Made by a program: the position numbers and the translations under genes. A stretch of DNA of 64,000 bases from NCBI GenBank assembly GCA_964202905.1, contig CAXNJO010000008.1, positions 128,001 to 192,000 of the forward strand, written 5' to 3'. The number at the start of each line of letters is the position of its first letter. Positions within the stretch are counted from its first letter, which is position 1. The notes beneath the pieces are model-generated. The model did no database searches, was not told where the DNA came from, and saw nothing but the letters and a program-made list of their open reading frames with translations. This stretch comes from Polyangiales bacterium. Its GTDB lineage: Bacteria > Myxococcota_A > Polyangia > Polyangiales > JADJQN01. Below, piece after piece: positions 47,168-54,203 of this stretch.

Positions 47168-47240
47168 GCTCCCGTAGCTCAGGGGATAGAGCAGCGGTTT
47201 CCTAAACCGTTGGCCGCACGTTCGATTCGTGCCGGGAGCG
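47168..47240 (+). tRNA. tRNA-Arg(CCT), integration target
   Basis: Acceptor GCTCCCG/CGGGAGC, anticodon arm GCGGT-TTCCTAA-ACCGT, T-arm GCACG-TTCGATT-CGTGC; CCA is not encoded. Confidence 0.95.
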
Positions 47241-47242
47241 CC
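47199..47242 (+). repeat. Left att core (44 bp)
   Basis: TTCCTAAACCGTTGGCCGCACGTTCGATTCGTGCCGGGAGCGCC, identical to 54160-54203. Confidence 0.95.
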
Positions 47243-47269
47243 GTAAAAAATAAGGCGAAGCGCGGGCCG

Positions 47270-48445
47270 CTACCGCCGCGTCCTCGAGGTGCCGCGAGCC
47301 TGTGTGGGCAAAGGCGGAGCAAGGTCGATCACCCGTTCACGCGTGACGACTTGCGGTGCGCTCGCGGCGACGAGGAAGGCGCGCGTATCCTCGACCTCGA
47401 CGTGGGCGTAGCGTGCGGACGTTTGGATGTTGGCGTGCCCGAGGACCTTCGCCACCGTGTCGAGGCCGCCACCGGCGCGACGAATCATGGTCGCCGCGTG
47501 GTGCCGGAGGTCGTGAGCGCGGAGGTCGGCGAGGCCGTGCGCCTTCGCGAAGATTGCCCACGCCTTGCTCGCGAGGTCCCGGCGGCGCTGTTCCTCTGTG
47601 CGCTTCAACTCTTCGATGCGTGCCGCGCGACGAGGAATCGGGAACACGAAGGCGTCGGGCTCCCCGACGTGGAGCGCGTCGAGGACGTCGGCCAGGACCG
47701 GGACGATGGCGACCTCCCGCGTGCGATGCGTCTTGGTCCGCGTGAAGCGCACGACCTCGGCCGAGCGGTCGACGTCACGCCAGCGGAGGGACGTGATCTC
47801 GCCGAGCCGAGCGCCGGTGAACTTGCACGCCAGCGCGACCGGACGGAGCCAGCCCTTGAGCTTCGCGGACACGAGGGCCTCTTCCTCGGGTGACAAGTAG
47901 CGCACGCGACCCTCGGGCTCGCGAAGGCTCTTGAGCTCGCGGAGCGTGGCGGCGGTGCTTCGCTCCATGAGTCCCTCCCGCGCAGCCCACGCCGCGAAGG
48001 TCTTGAGCGTGGAGACGTGGCGATTCACCGTCGCCGGCGACCGCCCGCTCGCACGCATCGACGCCTTGAAGCGTTCGACGTCGAAGGGCGCGAGGGACGC
48101 CAGCGCCTTGTGCTCGCCGAGGAAGCCACGCAACGCCTTCCCGTGCGCCTCACGGTCGCGGACGGTCTTGATCCCGTGCGTCGCGCAATGGGCGAGCCAG
48201 CGGTCGAACGTCGCGCCGAGCGTTGCGGGGGGCGCACGAAGCGGATCGAACGAACCGTCGACGATCTCCGCGAGGAAGGCCTGTGCGCGCCGCTTCGCGG
48301 CTGCGGTCGTCGTGCCTCTGGGTAGACGCTCGCGGAAGCGCTTGTGCTCGCCCGTGCGGACGTCTTGCCACCGAAGGTCGATATGGAAGGTCCCCTCGGC
48401 CGAGCGAAACAGTCCACGCACGCCGTATCGCGTGGGGCGAGACAT
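47270..48445 (-). CDS. Tyrosine recombinase/integrase
   Basis: SPATVNR, FTGARLGEI (R), TKT (K), AHDLRH (HxxR), LGH, ARYAH (Y); ATG at 48445 overlaps the upstream stop (TGATG). Confidence 0.95.
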   Translation of the reverse strand: MSRPTRYGVRGLFRSAEGTFHIDLRWQDVRTGEHKRFRERLPRGTTTAAAKRRAQAFLAEIVDGSFDPLRAPPATLGATFDRWLAHCATHGIKTVRDREAHGKALRGFLGEHKALASLAPFDVERFKASMRASGRSPATVNRHVSTLKTFAAWAAREGLMERSTAATLRELKSLREPEGRVRYLSPEEEALVSAKLKGWLRPVALACKFTGARLGEITSLRWRDVDRSAEVVRFTRTKTHRTREVAIVPVLADVLDALHVGEPDAFVFPIPRRAARIEELKRTEEQRRRDLASKAWAIFAKAHGLADLRAHDLRHHAATMIRRAGGGLDTVAKVLGHANIQTSARYAHVEVEDTRAFLVAASAPQVVTRERVIDLAPPLPTQARGTSRTRR

Positions 48446-48633
48446 CACGCACCTCCGCGAGCGCGACGAGCCTTCGCGAGCGCGACCTCTCGAACCCACG
48501 TCGAGAGCTCCACGTCGCCAGCGCCCCCGAGCAACGTGCGTCGCTCGTCGGCGGAAACGCGAATCTCGAGCCGCTCCGAGCGGCGGTCCTGCGCAGGGAT
48601 GGGAGGCCGACCGGGCTTGCGTTGTGTTGCCAT
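48445..48633 (-). CDS. Small ribbon-helix-helix-like DNA-binding protein
   Basis: 62 aa: GRPP..RLEIRVSADERRTL..LSTWVREVAL; coupled to the integrase start. Confidence 0.65.
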   Translation of the reverse strand: MATQRKPGRPPIPAQDRRSERLEIRVSADERRTLLGGAGDVELSTWVREVALAKARRARGGA

Positions 48634-48641
48634 CGTGCGAG

Positions 48642-48670
48642 ATTGTGTCCGGACACGGAGCGCACGTCAA
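48642..48670 (-). promoter_or_regulatory. Promoter of the RHH-integrase operon with an overlapping palindromic operator
   Basis: Minus strand TTGACG-N17-CACAAT; perfect palindrome GTGTCCGGACAC at 48645-48656. Confidence 0.55.
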
Positions 48671-48777
48671 GAGAGGCGGCGTGCGGCCGTGTAAAGCTAA
48701 CGGCGCACGCCTGAAATAGACCCGCCCGCGACGCGCGAACGTCCGGGCGGATGGTCACCCCGAGCCCCCGGAGCGAC

Positions 48778-49509
48778 ATGGCCAACGTAAAGCCCGGCCG
48801 CGCGAAAGACAACGCGCGAGCCAACGTCGACGTGCCGAAGCGCAAGAGCGCGAAGGCCACGGCGACGCCTGCGAACACACGCCCCACGAGCGCGTCCGAC
48901 GTATGGGCCGCGATGGAGACGCTGCTAGGCCATCGGCGAGTGCTGAATCTTCAAAGCAAGACAGCCGGGAAGAGGCTTCGAGGCGTCGAATCAGGACAGG
49001 TCCCGGCGGCGGAACGGGCGTATTGGACCCGAGCACAAGGGGAAGCCGACGATGCGTTGCGCGACCTTGACGACGCCGTGCACAAGGCGTCGGCCCGTGT
49101 GGATGGGCTCGTCGACCTCGCGAGGAACAACGTCAACGCAGCGTCGTCGTCGTGGGTCCCGCCGCAACGCGAGGAAACTCTCCATCTCTTCGACGAGGCT
49201 CGAGGTGCGGTCGACGCGCGAATCAAGACGCGGAAACGCTCCCCGGCAAGCGACGAAGGAAGAGAGGAGGCGTTGCGATCCGTCGTCGCCCTCGGGCTTC
49301 GCCTCGACGTGAACTTCGACCGGGAAGGCAGGGATGCGTCGGCGCTACGCGAACAATTGGAGCGGCTATGCGGCGACCCGCCCGAGAGCACAAAGCACGG
49401 CCGGGCGGCGCTGATCGTTGAAAGGCTCACCCGGGCACCCCTCGACACACTCGAGCGATGGCGGCGACGCCTGCGAAAATCAGGCTCGTCGACGCTTCCC
49501 CGACACTGA
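48778..49509 (+). CDS. Hypothetical protein of the element
   Basis: 243-aa ORF after GGAG; looks helical, no motif recognised. Alternative start at 48751. Confidence 0.55.
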   Translation: MANVKPGRAKDNARANVDVPKRKSAKATATPANTRPTSASDVWAAMETLLGHRRVLNLQSKTAGKRLRGVESGQVPAAERAYWTRAQGEADDALRDLDDAVHKASARVDGLVDLARNNVNAASSSWVPPQREETLHLFDEARGAVDARIKTRKRSPASDEGREEALRSVVALGLRLDVNFDREGRDASALREQLERLCGDPPESTKHGRAALIVERLTRAPLDTLERWRRRLRKSGSSTLPRH

Positions 49510-49526
49510 TCGAAGAAGTGTCGGGG
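49498..49526. repeat. 10-bp inverted repeat at the end of the orphan gene
   Basis: CCCCGACACT-N9-AGTGTCGGGG. Confidence 0.6.
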
Positions 49527-49597
49527 GAATCGCTCGCCGCCCATCCGTAGACATGGCCCTGCGACGCCACCGATGGCGGTCGTCAAGGAGCCCCAAC

Positions 49598-49897
49598 ATG
49601 GACCGTTCATCCCGTTTCAATTCGCGGAGCGAAGAGTCGCGCGCGTTCTACACGGCTCGCCCCGAAGGCGACCTCTCGACGCGCAAGGTTGCCCCCAAGC
49701 TGTTGACACTCGACGAGGCGGCCGATGCCGCACGAGCTCCCGTGCGGAGCGTGCGGTCGTGGATCGCCGATGGTCGCTTGAAGGCGAACCGGGCAGCGCG
49801 TCGCGTGCTCGTGCGTCGCGCCGACCTCGCCGTGTTCCTCGGCGTCGACGTCTCCGACCTCGAGGTGTCGCGCGTCCGTGAAGGGGGCGAGCCGTGA
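49598..49897 (+). CDS. Excisionase/AlpA-like HTH (HTH_17) protein
   Basis: AAGGAG RBS; LLTLDEAA..VRSWIADGRLKA..RVLVRRADL. Confidence 0.8.
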   Translation: MDRSSRFNSRSEESRAFYTARPEGDLSTRKVAPKLLTLDEAADAARAPVRSVRSWIADGRLKANRAARRVLVRRADLAVFLGVDVSDLEVSRVREGGEP

Positions 49898-50754
49898 GCG
49901 CCCTCGACGTGGCGTGCGGGTTCGCCGCGCGCGGAATACCGACCTTCCCGTGCACGCAACACAAGCGGCCGCTCACCGTTCACGGCTTCCATGACGCGAG
50001 CACGGACCCCTCGACGCACGCCGCTTGGTTCGAGCGCTGGCCGGGCGCGAATCTCGCGATCCCCACGGGCACGCGGAGCGGCGTGCTCGTCGTCGACCTC
50101 GACGTGAAGGAAGGCCGCGACGGTCGCGCCACGCTCGCCGGCCTCGAGGACCGCTTCGGCACGTTGCCCGCAACGCTCGTCGTCGAGACACCATCGGGCG
50201 GCGAGCATCGTTGGTTCGTGATGCCCGACGTCCCGATCCGAAACTCGGCGGGCCGTCTCGCGGGCGAGGACGTGCCGGGCTTCGACGTGCGCGGCGAGGG
50301 CGGCTACGTGCTCGTCCCGCCGAGCCGCATCGAAGGGCGCGCCTACGCATGGCGGGAACGTCGACGACCGGCCGAGCTTCCGCGCGCGTGGATCGACGTC
50401 CTCGCACCGCGGGTGCGTGAGGTGACGACCGCGCCCGCTTGGACGCCAAGCGAAAGGCGTGAGCGGGCAGCGGCCGGGCGCTATTCGGCGGCCGCGTTGC
50501 AGCGCGAGGCCCGTGAGCTCGCGGGGACACCGAAGGGGGCGCGCAACGACCGGCTATGGCGCGCCGCCGCTGCTCTTGGCGGGCTCGTGCGCCTCGGCGG
50601 GATCGACGTCGCCGACATACGCACGGCCCTCGCGTGGGCGTGCCGTCAATGGCGCGACCGTGACGACGTGAAGGACGCCGCGACCATCGACCGCGCGCTC
50701 CGCTTCGGCCTCGCGAATCCGCGGACCGTCGACCTCTCGCGGAGGGCGGCATGA
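49894..50754 (+). CDS. Bifunctional DNA primase/polymerase (Prim-Pol, AEP family)
   Basis: FPC..KRP..GFHDASTD..W..WPGANLAIPTG..VVDLD..TPSGGEHRWF..DVRGEGGYVLVPPS; C-terminal GARND helical domain. Confidence 0.92.
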   Translation: MSALDVACGFAARGIPTFPCTQHKRPLTVHGFHDASTDPSTHAAWFERWPGANLAIPTGTRSGVLVVDLDVKEGRDGRATLAGLEDRFGTLPATLVVETPSGGEHRWFVMPDVPIRNSAGRLAGEDVPGFDVRGEGGYVLVPPSRIEGRAYAWRERRRPAELPRAWIDVLAPRVREVTTAPAWTPSERRERAAAGRYSAAALQREARELAGTPKGARNDRLWRAAAALGGLVRLGGIDVADIRTALAWACRQWRDRDDVKDAATIDRALRFGLANPRTVDLSRRAA

Positions 50755-52415
50755 CGACGACGCGCACCAAGCGAGACAACCCACCCCCGCGCGACGAGCA
50801 AGGTGTTCCGCTCTTGAGCGGTGAGCTCACGGAGCTCGAAATGTCGGAGCGCCTCGTCAAATGGTTTGGCGACGACCTCCGCTTCTGTCGCGGCCTCAAG
50901 GGATGGCATATCTGGACGGGGACGCATTGGAAGCACGACGAGGCGAAACTCGCTCAAGAGCACGCGAAGGACGTCGCACGTAGGCTCAAGGAAGAAGCCG
51001 ACGACGTCCAGGATCGCGGCACACAAAAGAGCGCCAGCCGCGCGGGCTCCCTCAACGGCAACAAGGCGATCCTCGGGCTCGCCGAATCCGAACCGCGCAT
51101 CGTGTTCACCGTCGAGGACGCGGACCGCGACGGGTATCTGCTGAACTGCGCGAACGGTACGGTGGACCTTCGGACGGGCGGGCTTCGACCGCACGACCGC
51201 GGCGACCTTATCACGAAGGTCGCGCCGATCGCGTTCGACCCCGACGCACGCGCCCCGCGCTTCGAAGAGGCTCTCGTCGAGTGGCAACCCGACCCCGACG
51301 TGCGCGCGTTCCTTCAACGGTGGGCGGGCTACGCGGCGACGGGCGTGATCCGCGATCACGTCCTCCCGGTCGCCTTTGGCGTGGGCGCGAACGGCAAGAG
51401 CACGCTGTTCGATCTGCTCGCGCGAATCCTCGGGGACTACTCGGCGGCGATGCCCGCGCACTTCCTCGCCATCCAAAAGCAAGAGAAGCACGACACCGAG
51501 ATCGCACGGCTTCGCGGCGTGCGTCTCGCGGTCGCGAGTGAGACGAGCAACGGGTGCGCGCTCGACGAGGCGAAGGTGAAGCGACTCACCGGCGGGGACG
51601 TGCTCACCGGGCGCTTCATGCGCGCCGACTTCATCGACTTCCGACCCACGGCGAAGTTCGTGCTGCTCACGAATCATCGACCAAGACTGCGCGGCACGGA
51701 CGAGGGCATCCGACGCCGCGTACTGCTCGTGCCGTTCGACAACGTGATCCCCGCGGACAAGCGCGACGGGAAACTCGCCGAGCGCCTCTTCCGAGAGGAA
51801 GCGCCCGGCATCCTCCGGTGGATCGTCGACGGTGCGCGGGATTGGTACGCGCGCGAAGAACGCCTCGAGCCGCCCGCCACCGTCATGACGGCGACCACCG
51901 AGTATCACGCGGACGAGGACGTGCTTGCGCGCTTCGTGGACGAGCGGTGCACGCGGGACGCCAACGCGAAGGCCGCACCCACCGTCCTCTTCAACGCCTT
52001 CCGAGCATGGTGCGAGAGGAACGGCGAACGGCACGACGTGTCCGCACGCAACATCGGCGAGCGCCTCGACCGGCTTGGATTCAAGCGAGGCCGAAGCCGT
52101 AGCGTCCGCTGGATCGCAGGGATCGCGCTCGAACATGACGGCACGGGGGGGGATGGTGACGATGGTGACGCTTCCACCATTTACCCTCTACACGCGCACG
52201 CACGCGCGCACACACCGAAGGGGAAGAGGGCGGGTGCGTCACCATCGTCACCGCCGACGAGGACGCCGAGCGTGAGGCGTTCGACAACCTCGGCGGCGAC
52301 CATGAGTGAGCGGCGGGCCCGTCGATTCCTCGGGCTCGTCGTGCTCGTGCTGCTCTCGACGACGTGCGGGGAGCTTCCGGCGTCCTCCCGCGCGACGTCC
52401 GAGCGTGCACTGTGA
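50751..52415 (+). CDS. P4/D5-family primase-associated SF3 helicase
   Basis: D5_N (WHIWTGTHW, LNCANGTVDL), Walker A GVGANGKST, Walker B RLAVASE, KRLTGGD, TNHRP, GIRRR..VPF. Confidence 0.92.
   Translation: MTTTRTKRDNPPPRDEQGVPLLSGELTELEMSERLVKWFGDDLRFCRGLKGWHIWTGTHWKHDEAKLAQEHAKDVARRLKEEADDVQDRGTQKSASRAGSLNGNKAILGLAESEPRIVFTVEDADRDGYLLNCANGTVDLRTGGLRPHDRGDLITKVAPIAFDPDARAPRFEEALVEWQPDPDVRAFLQRWAGYAATGVIRDHVLPVAFGVGANGKSTLFDLLARILGDYSAAMPAHFLAIQKQEKHDTEIARLRGVRLAVASETSNGCALDEAKVKRLTGGDVLTGRFMRADFIDFRPTAKFVLLTNHRPRLRGTDEGIRRRVLLVPFDNVIPADKRDGKLAERLFREEAPGILRWIVDGARDWYAREERLEPPATVMTATTEYHADEDVLARFVDERCTRDANAKAAPTVLFNAFRAWCERNGERHDVSARNIGERLDRLGFKRGRSRSVRWIAGIALEHDGTGGDGDDGDASTIYPLHAHARAHTPKGKRAGASPSSPPTRTPSVRRSTTSAATMSERRARRFLGLVVLVLLSTTCGELPASSRATSERAL
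52155..52252. other. Putative replication origin of the element
   Basis: 17-bp perfect inverted repeat GGTGACGATGGTGACGC / GCGTCACCATCGTCACC flanking a 64-bp spacer. Confidence 0.55.
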
Positions 52416-52975
52416 GCGAGCCGTTGGAACCCGACGAAACGGCAGACGTAACGGGCGAGGTCCTCGACGACCCGCCCGGCCACCGGCGAGGCGGGCAGCG
52501 CGCACGAGCCGCGGAGCTACTCGCCGAAGGTGCGTCGCCCGTCGAGGTCGCCGCGGCCCTCGGCGTCTCGCGGACGACCGGATGGCGGCTCGCACAGGAA
52601 CCGGAGGTCCTCGTCGCGGTCAAGTCGATCCGCGACGCACGAGCGCACAACGCGGCCCTGCGCATTGAACACTTCGCCTCGCGTGCCGCACAGGTCCTCG
52701 GCGAGCTCGTCGACGACCGCGAGATGCCGCCGATCGTGAGGCTTCGCGCCGCGTGCGAGCTCCTGGACCGCGCCGGCTACGGGCACGTCGAACGGAGCCA
52801 CCGCGCCCGCGTCGACCGCGAGCTCGCCGGCTTCCTCGACACGTTGAAGCGGACCGTCGACGCCTCGACCTACGTGAGCGTCCTCAAGGCGTTGCACGCG
52901 TGGGCGTCGCACGACGTCGAATCCTCGTCCGCGTTGTGGTCGGAGCAATCGGACGGGAAGGTGTCGCGGGGGTAG
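52412..52975 (+). CDS. HTH protein, terminase small subunit-like
   Basis: N-terminal HTH (AAELLAEGASPVEVAAALGVSRTTGWRL), then helices with VRLRAACELLDRAG; GTG overlaps the helicase stop. Confidence 0.55.
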   Translation: MSEPLEPDETADVTGEVLDDPPGHRRGGQRARAAELLAEGASPVEVAAALGVSRTTGWRLAQEPEVLVAVKSIRDARAHNAALRIEHFASRAAQVLGELVDDREMPPIVRLRAACELLDRAGYGHVERSHRARVDRELAGFLDTLKRTVDASTYVSVLKALHAWASHDVESSSALWSEQSDGKVSRG

Positions 52976-53018
52976 ACGCGCCGCTCTAGGGCCTCGACAC
53001 GGTGCTAACGTCGCGGGC

Positions 53019-53486
53019 GTGCTCGAGAACCTTGAAACCGGCTCGCTCTATCTCTTCCGCGATTGGCCGGTTGCAGCCGTCCCGCGCGCCGCCGGCGTCT
53101 ACACCATATGGGAGGCCGATGCTCTCATGTACGTCGGCATGGCCGGGGCTCGCCGCACGGAAGCGGAGATCGCGGAGCGGGCCACAACGAAGCGGGTCGG
53201 GCTCGCCGACCGTCTTACAAGCCACGCCCGCGGTTGGCGAAGCGGCGACCAATTCGCCGTGTACGTCTGCGACCGGCTCGTGCTCCCGACGTTGAGCCGC
53301 GAACAGATCGAAGCGGTCGCCGCGGGCGCGAGGTCGTTGGACGTGCTCACGCGAGACTACATCCGCGCGCACCTCGGGTTTCGCTTCATCGCGACCGAGG
53401 ACGGTACAAGCGCGACCGCTCTTGAGCGCCGTGCACGCGGGGGCGAACTTCGCGCCGGCAAGCCTCGTCTGAATCCCGGCCGTTGA
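53019..53486 (+). CDS. GIY-YIG nuclease-family protein
   Basis: AGVYTIW..LMYVGMA..LADRLTSH..ALE..PRLN. Confidence 0.72.
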   Translation: MLENLETGSLYLFRDWPVAAVPRAAGVYTIWEADALMYVGMAGARRTEAEIAERATTKRVGLADRLTSHARGWRSGDQFAVYVCDRLVLPTLSREQIEAVAAGARSLDVLTRDYIRAHLGFRFIATEDGTSATALERRARGGELRAGKPRLNPGR

Positions 53487-54159
53487 ACCGCGAGCGATCC
53501 GCCGCGCGCGGAAGGTGTGCCGCCGGCCCCGCGTGGGGCGTCGACGAGGACGAGCGCCTCGAGGTGCGGGTCGCACGGGGAAGCGCGCTCGCGGGCCCGT
53601 AGCGCGTCCTCGAGGACGACGACGAGGATCGGCCCGGCGTGGCCATCGACGTTGCCAGCCCGCGGAGGTCGACGGGAGCGGCGACGCCTCGACGTGTCGG
53701 CGACGTTGCCCGCGCGCGGAGGTCGTCGACGACGGCCGGGCCCTCGACGAGCGCCAAGCGTCAACGCCGGGCCGTGGCGGGCTCCACAATCGGCGCGCCG
53801 CTGTTGACGTGTTCAGTGTCGGTCGGGCCGCTCGAAGCGACGCACGGGCCAGCTACGGCCGGCGGCTTGCCGCGCGCGGAGGTCGACGGGGACGGGGACG
53901 GCGACGTCTCGATGCGCCGCCATCGGCCGGGCGTGTTGCCCACACGGAAGCGCACCCGCGGCCCGCGACGGCGGCAGCGTGAAACGCTTGTCGAACGTGG
54001 GCTTTGGCGTGGGCAAAGGCGTGGGCAACGTCCGCCATCCGTCGCCGACTTCGGCCTAGTTTGCCCACGATGGCGATCGCGCCCTTGAACCGCCGAAGAG
54101 CGCCGAAGCCCTTGTTTATAAGGCGTTTCGCGCGATGCATCGAGCGAAGAGGGCACGGA

Positions 54160-54203
54160 TTCCTAAACCGTTGGCCGCACGTTCGATTCGTGCCGGGAGC
54201 GCC
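54160..54203 (+). repeat. Right att core (44 bp; duplicated tRNA-Arg 3' half)
   Basis: Identical to 47199-47242; the sequence upstream lacks the tRNA 5' half. Confidence 0.95.

Follow-up and report, generated by a model that had tools for sequence, protein, structure and literature searches.

A compact element integrated at tRNA-Arg(CCT) of a Polyangiales bacterium resembles a helper-dependent phage satellite

Satellites shape the success of phages and the flow of genes, and none has been reported for myxobacteria in the literature that we searched, a coverage from which subscription papers were mostly missing; in the part that was available of a survey from 2026, which covered 3,229 myxobacterial genomes, the word "satellite" appears only in the reference list (10.64898/2026.09.14.751636). 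The closest described systems are the phage-inducible chromosomal islands (PICIs). According to the consulted part of their description (PMC6092414), Gram-negative PICIs are unidirectional, whereas Gram-positive PICIs, of the Staphylococcus aureus pathogenicity island (SaPI) type, are divergent, with a leftward regulator-int block and a rightward series of xis, pri, rep, ori, terS and cargo; a split primase and replicase is standard, and the origin, directly 3' of rep, consists of two iteron sets around an AT-rich region. Here an element of this general appearance is compared with these systems. It occupies positions 47199 to 54203 of a stretch of 64,000 nt (the window; contig CAXNJO010000008.1, positions 128,001 to 192,000) from a Polyangiales bacterium (GCA_964202905.1; host genome G000). 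Our results suggest, with a probability of about 0.75, that it is a PICI-like phage satellite which redirects the terminase of a helper phage. Such a helper-dependent satellite had been proposed from the DNA letters alone (the original prediction), and the proposal is supported by the absence of the element from the same site in a relative, by further islands bounded by attachment (att) sites, by the excision of sister elements and by the family of the small terminase subunit (TerS).

The borders are formed by a 44-nt direct repeat with a spacing of 6,961 nt, which proved exact on recheck and corresponds to the 3' 44 nt of tRNA-Arg(CCT), starting at the anticodon loop; when excision is computed from the sequence, the tRNA is rebuilt letter for letter, as predicted. 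The element is present in a single copy in the host genome and has a G+C content of 69%, versus about 73% for that genome. Two leftward genes, encoding a likely ribbon-helix-helix (RHH) protein and the integrase, are followed by rightward genes for an orphan protein, an Xis-like protein, a Prim-Pol, a superfamily 3 (SF3) helicase, a TerS-like protein and a GIY-YIG-like protein. Stop/start overlaps are read at RHH/int, Xis/Prim-Pol, Prim-Pol/helicase and helicase/TerS, which confirms the overlapped rightward run from Xis through TerS. The features are as follows.

47168..47242, + strand: tRNA-Arg(CCT), integration target (ARAGORN; Rfam RF00005, 64.9 bits)
47199..47242, + strand: attL core, 44 nt, from the anticodon loop on (exact repeat)
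47270..48445, - strand: tyrosine integrase, 391 aa (PF00589, E 2e-20)
47304..47311, + strand: predicted integrase arm site GTGGGCAA (8-mer clustering near the att cores)
48445..48633, - strand: likely RHH regulator, 62 aa (from homologues; its stop overlaps the int start)
48642..48670, - strand: sigma-70-like promoter TTGACG-17-CACAAT (the element has no other promoter-like site; 0.2 expected)
48778..49509, + strand: orphan, all-helical, 243 aa (six matches including itself)
49598..49897, + strand: Xis/AlpA-like HTH_17 protein, 99 aa (PF12728, E 5e-7; phrog_66; TIGR01764)
49894..50754, + strand: Prim-Pol primase-polymerase, 286 aa (PF09250, E 2e-43; motifs)
50751..52415, + strand: D5/P4-family SF3 helicase (PF08706, PF19263, PF03288; TIGR01613, E 2e-84)
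52155..52252, no strand: predicted replication origin, two inverted 9-nt iteron sets with a 64-nt spacer
52412..52975, + strand: TerS homologue of the PaP3/NV1/phBC6A51 type, 187 aa (family profile against PDB)
53019..53486, + strand: GIY-YIG-like nuclease, variable cargo (ESM Atlas neighbours at 0.92-0.97 with GIY-YIG families)
53487..54159, no strand: right arm, apparently non-coding (with imperfect repeats; four of the six arm-site copies lie here)
54160..54203, + strand: attR core, 44 nt (exact repeat)

The succession of Xis, pri-rep, ori, terS and cargo agrees with the published order of Gram-positive PICIs, as had been claimed, and the leftward regulator-int block has its counterpart there as well. 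The tRNA att site, the size of about 7 kb, the origin with two iteron sets and the lack of structural and lysis genes are further likenesses (PMC6092414; 10.1101/2022.09.14.508007, both as far as consulted). When compared with the PICI definition in the available part of the SatelliteFinder paper (10.1101/2022.09.14.508007), the integrase, pri-rep and terS are present and the forbidden tail, holin and cf-PICI (capsid-forming PICI) genes are absent. For the regulator slot of that definition (AlpA, MerR or Stl), the scans gave an HTH_17/excisionase match, a weak MerR-like one (phrog_2474, E 3.5e-3) and none to an AlpA or Stl family; for the optional capsid-morphogenesis slot no gene is recognised. 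Taken together, the element appears to resemble SatelliteFinder type B, which lacks one of the five cores. On the other hand, the regulator beside int is RHH-like and not Stl/Rpr, AlpA or MerR, the TerS is of the PaP3/phBC6A51 type, the spacer of the origin is not clearly AT-rich, no capsid-size gene is recognisable, and the host is a myxobacterium, a group that is unnamed in the SatelliteFinder main text as consulted. The separate Prim-Pol and helicase, originally offered as a novelty, are ordinary for PICIs, and a profile search shows the TerS family to be very large, with 6,681 clusters at E<=0.001; the novelty is therefore confined to the regulatory module and to the lineage of the host. 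If the satellite reading is true, the basic mechanism would be the known PICI one, differing in the RHH-int operon and the host lineage.

Other described systems are further removed. Among the 10-11 open reading frames (ORFs) scanned (Pfam, PHROG), nothing matched a capsid, portal, tail, lysis or relaxase family, nor, when NCBIfam was included, an oriT-associated or conjugation gene. A comparison with 16 proteins of phage heads, packaging and tails, taken from related loci, gave no match to the element either, so that the absence of such genes noted at the outset holds. The lack of relaxase and conjugation matches among the scanned ORFs sets the element apart from integrative mobilizable and conjugative elements, and the lack of Psu, Delta and Sid matches in its eight genes (Pfam, PHROG, NCBIfam) from P4-like satellites. 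With cf-PICIs, and with capsid-less myxobacterial islands that carry the large terminase subunit (TerL), it has a common int/xis/replication left half; unlike cf-PICIs, no capsid, portal, protease or TerL of its own was found in it. Tycheposons and marine integrative mobile elements that are encapsidated in virions (VEIMEs) also combine a tRNA-targeted tyrosine integrase and exchangeable replication modules with TerS or a capsid gene as the hijacking part (consulted parts of 10.1101/2020.12.28.424599 and PMC9618062), whereas they belong to marine cyanobacteria and proteobacteria and have their own integrase clade; the likeness is drawn here by description. The tRNA was the sole match of an Rfam scan, and PADLOC gave no match for the three window proteins tested.

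Searched on its own, the TerS-like protein matches mainly HTH_23, a helix-turn-helix (HTH) family, and phrog_2538 weakly (E 5e-3). An alignment of 120 sequences of its family, compared with PDB, matches the TerS of PaP3/NV1 (6w7t, E 3.4e-11; 7joq, E 1.2e-9) in the oligomerisation region and not in the HTH, and that of phBC6A51 (2ao9) at E 5e-5. The motif RxRAAxxILDRAG is common to the family and PaP3/NV1, and the arrangement of an HTH with oligomerisation helices is alike. The TerS of PaP3, a cos phage, is described as a nonamer with sequence-specific DNA binding (PMC7672466, as far as consulted). Moreover, three same-order prophages have a family member directly before their TerL, portal and head protease genes (hhalign 98-99%), with a major capsid gene further on and, in one, a tail sheath gene; of the 22 loci examined, at least 7 have a homologue immediately upstream of TerL. 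The original TerS-like call is upheld by this profile match and by these neighbourhoods, and the identity appears firm at the family level and weak from the window protein alone. Fold searches gave agreeing, weak matches (no PDB match at E <0.001, no Z >6.1), and the prediction of a four-copy homo-oligomer scored 0.23 (mark 0.42), which speaks neither for nor against. As only 5 of 26 inner branches of the TerS tree are supported, no donor is claimed; tblastn against deposited phages gave no match. A widespread HTH family thus seems to serve as TerS in phages and islands alike.

A search of 301 genomes of the order with a TerS alignment gave matches at 23 places in 21 genomes; 22 of these were examined, a 1.6-kb TerS contig in G047 being left out. 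Ten of the 22, the window included, are att-bounded islands of 5.9-15.5 kb at tRNA or tmRNA genes, in which no TerL, portal or capsid match was obtained from submitted genes or a six-frame search; no integrase is called in one of them (L098), and two (L094, L108) have tail-class genes. The remainder comprises three prophages, three loci with TerL and no portal seen, one with TerL at a contig end and five undecided cases. The homologues are therefore not restricted to prophages, a check that had been proposed earlier, since many small att-bounded islands carry them. The replicons of the islands vary (SF3, VapE-like, AAA/RecA-type and phrog_2373 helicases, and a rolling-circle-like Rep), and L121 has a split Prim-Pol and helicase too. 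Another proposed check, for an empty site, was made in G001 (same genus, 80% complete), where a single contig carries tRNA-Arg together with the lipoprotein and DsbD genes downstream of it; the interval contains three host-type genes but neither a protein of the element nor a second copy of att, and the element is thus absent from this site. In G002 (same family) a related element occupies the same tRNA-Arg, with orphan, Xis, fused primase-helicase, TerS, TerL and integrase; its second att, 21.8 kb away, is degenerate. This element is without portal or capsid on the basis of 11 ORFs of locus L018 and a local six-frame search. TerS is followed by TerL in this locus and in L109 and L111. One may tentatively, at somewhat less than even odds, see in these loci an order-wide, undescribed family of myxobacterial satellites that keep a TerS of the family found in the temperate phages of their hosts, are switched by an RHH-integrase operon in place of Stl or AlpA, swap replicons and have graded hijacking kits: TerS only, as in the window, the minimal member; added TerL; added tail-fibre/baseplate genes; or a capsid-protease gene.

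Four metagenome runs were compared with the element at 85% likeness, and contigs were assembled with 31-letter words; among the runs listed as containing the element there was no RNA data set. In run X1 a contig joins 54159 to 47199, which is the attP junction (34 flank and 44 core letters, depth 12.7); pieces of the element are present at 4-15x, and several bins of the flanks are at 0 among the matches listed. In X5 an 8,329-nt contig of depth 11 starts at 54203 and continues round to 47213; its two ends share 30 nt within the att core, which suggests a closed circle or concatemer. The int, RHH, orphan, Xis, TerS and GIY genes of this sister are about 93-96% alike, other sequence replaces 49915-52392, and 1,123 nt are inserted after the GIY gene. 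Close sisters occur in water samples in excised, likely circular form. The search for a circular junction was thus successful for sister elements in two runs and not for this exact copy. The element is intact and recently mobile.

The satellite reading implies the following course. Excision and replication would be triggered while a helper phage is active: Int and Xis would excise the element, Prim-Pol and helicase would fire the iteron origin, and the element's TerS would pair with helper TerL, steering element DNA into helper heads. The RHH protein would repress its own leaderless RHH-int message, and the orphan would be, by position alone, the best candidate for a phage-responsive switch or interference factor. 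The helpers would likely be temperate tailed phages of the same order with this TerS family, for which prophages of the L104/L105/L106 type are a candidate; the helper would reach the host by infection, because none was found in the host genome. A simple repeat scan of G000 found no CRISPR array and therefore offers no spacer route to the helper. A compact mobile element and matching prophage candidates would make a testable satellite-helper pair in a lineage poor in genetic tools.

Several observations weigh against this course. G000, which is 94% complete, has no TerL by four families and no prophage-capsid match; no capsid-remodelling gene is recognised in the element, and its proteins have no match to the AlpA/Stl family. 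The nearest Pfam RHH family of the regulator, NikA-like, is a plasmid mobilisation protein. Iterons also follow the helicases of two prophages (L105 and L124), and the iteron origin is therefore not specific to satellites. The attP junction belongs to sisters about 92-98% alike and not to the window copy, and in X2 and X3, from one study, pieces 99-100% alike cover flanks and element, both near 3x, with no attP joint among the matches listed. There is no direct sign of virion packaging, the X1 and X5 contigs being without a recorded library type, IMG/VR scans for TerS, helicase and integrase brought up no close relative of any of them, and the tree gives no supported link of the window TerS to any prophage TerS.

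Some of these points would suit an integrative, self-replicating, plasmid-like element that spreads independently of phages, by conjugative mobilisation in trans, vesicles or cell contact, and uses TerS as a decoy that poisons packaging. An intracellular replicon could account for the circle-like form at 11x, RHH homologues resemble NikA, related islands carry defence genes (PifA, AbiTii, Upx, PDC-M32A), and tycheposons are reported to be enriched in vesicles (10.1101/2020.12.28.424599, as far as consulted). Such an element is nevertheless unlikely, considering that the scanned ORFs include no relaxase, oriT-associated or conjugation gene and that TerS, in some cases joined by TerL or tail genes, is retained across islands with wholly different replicons, a pattern that speaks for packaging.

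A deletion could also have produced the element from a prophage, with the early region and terS kept and everything from terL onward lost; in same-order prophages such as L105 the succession is helicase, origin, terS, terL, and a single deletion would yield a similar layout. Perfect att cores, intact overlapping ORFs, excised sisters with the same ends and swapped replicon and cargo, and nine more independent islands of like size at different tRNA or tmRNA genes make this origin improbable. Least probable of all is that the TerS-like protein is a transcription regulator, with an HTH and a helical dimerisation domain, in a generic integrative island: the HTH_23 matches, the modest phrog value and the weak structural matches would agree with it, whereas the PaP3/NV1 match outside the HTH and the homologues before TerL argue for a terminase.

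Turning to the single modules, the integrase has the catalytic residues R213, K238, H311, R314, H337 and Y346, invariant or near-invariant in the alignment, in line with the original description. The best named match to its alignment (window and three same-order genomes) is a Polyangiaceae record (L132), and scans gave mostly distant matches at 24-39% identity. Further copies of GTGGGCAA start at 47554, 53936, 54009, 54021 and 54061, which makes six in 64 kb versus 0.62 expected, none of them farther than about 320 nt from an att core; the 8-mer also occurs just inside the tRNA-Arg att of the G002 element. Because it clusters at both att ends, these copies are predicted to be integrase arm sites.

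Of the predicted RHH-int operon, the leftward stop/start overlap stood, while the RHH label has no direct Pfam or PHROG match and is derived from homologues. Among ten aligned members four match NikA-like and two RHH_1, and the profile matches NikR at E 0.014. A protein 54% identical precedes int in L111, and RHH-like genes beside int recur in L121 and L114. The leftward promoter ends 8 nt before the RHH start, and the message is predicted to be leaderless. A 12-bp palindrome (48645-48656) overlaps this promoter, and similar promoter-plus-palindrome layouts were seen by eye before the RHH-like genes of L092, L102 and L121. The palindrome could be the operator of the RHH-like protein, tentatively so because palindrome and promoter are partly altered in two sister elements.

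The helicase has D5_N, DUF5906 and Pox_D5 domains, its homology stops near residue 462, and, as a correction to the ORF, its final ~90 codons cross the origin and are of another length in sister L086. The predicted origin, just past the helicase domain, has a repeat score of 17 versus a maximum of 14 in 200 host windows, a fold z of -4.3 and one compensatory change in L086. Such a repeat exceeds all 30 shuffles at 13 of 20 helicase loci, with iteron sequences that differ among loci. A single-protein pattern scan with the helicase found nothing in genome contigs or viral contigs.

The start of the orphan was corrected to 48778, in agreement with all six aligned homologues, which, itself excepted, are 40-88% identical. 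No family or fold match was found (Pfam, PHROG, ESM Atlas >0.85, BFVD, PDB sequence), VIA gave nothing beyond a generic helical hairpin, and there is no detectable homology to same-slot genes in seven related islands. Its first 28 codons (48778-48862) hardly vary, even in a homologue with an overall identity of 33%, and disorder is predicted for them; a DNA or RNA signal possibly overlaps this 5' end, for which Rfam has no match. The Xis start is most likely ATG 49598, because two sisters have a 2-nt insertion just upstream.

The GIY-YIG label has no Pfam, PHROG or PADLOC match on the window protein and draws on homologues and language-model neighbours; one neighbour cluster is commonest in Myxococcota. 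A different gene occupies this slot in L086, and the gene is read as swappable cargo, possibly with an anti-phage role. In the right arm, alternative ORFs have no family match and none is called as a gene. Imperfect direct repeats about 214-294 nt apart (53658-53935) are candidate packaging or binding sites.

Related loci show further peculiarities. The G002 element (L018:8879-15882 and L019:8188) has TerS and a TerL of the prophage family (phrog_38); an Upx-like defence gene comes next, along with an Rhs-like one. L111:1-11615 (G247:C177) contains a VapE-like helicase, TerS, TerL, small genes and RHH-int, with no portal or capsid match; it is an entire 11.6-kb contig with identical 141-nt ends and has the appearance of a circular satellite with TerL that was binned into a genome. 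Tail-class genes occur in small TerS islands (L094:8029-9621, L092:4318-5829, L108:6595-8814), two encoding homologous 500-aa fibre/baseplate-like proteins (mutual E 1e-57) and one a baseplate wedge subunit; swapping of tails or receptors is possible. At a tRNA-Asp, the 9.8-kb att-bounded island L123:5631-15500 combines a different TerS (phrog_57) with a fused protease-major capsid gene and a helicase match broken by a stop. In L099:8985-10297 and L101:8942-10344, TerS lies beside a short rolling-circle-like Rep, with no primase-helicase; the phrog_3419 match of L099 is weak, and one genome, G022, has three TerS islands. The 14-kb att-bounded island with L102:10441-13151 has three unassigned genes (394, 341 and 164 aa) without PHROG match right after TerS. 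The portal genes of prophages L104, L105 and L106 have an extra C-terminal domain, with RNA ligase-like matches in L105 and L106.

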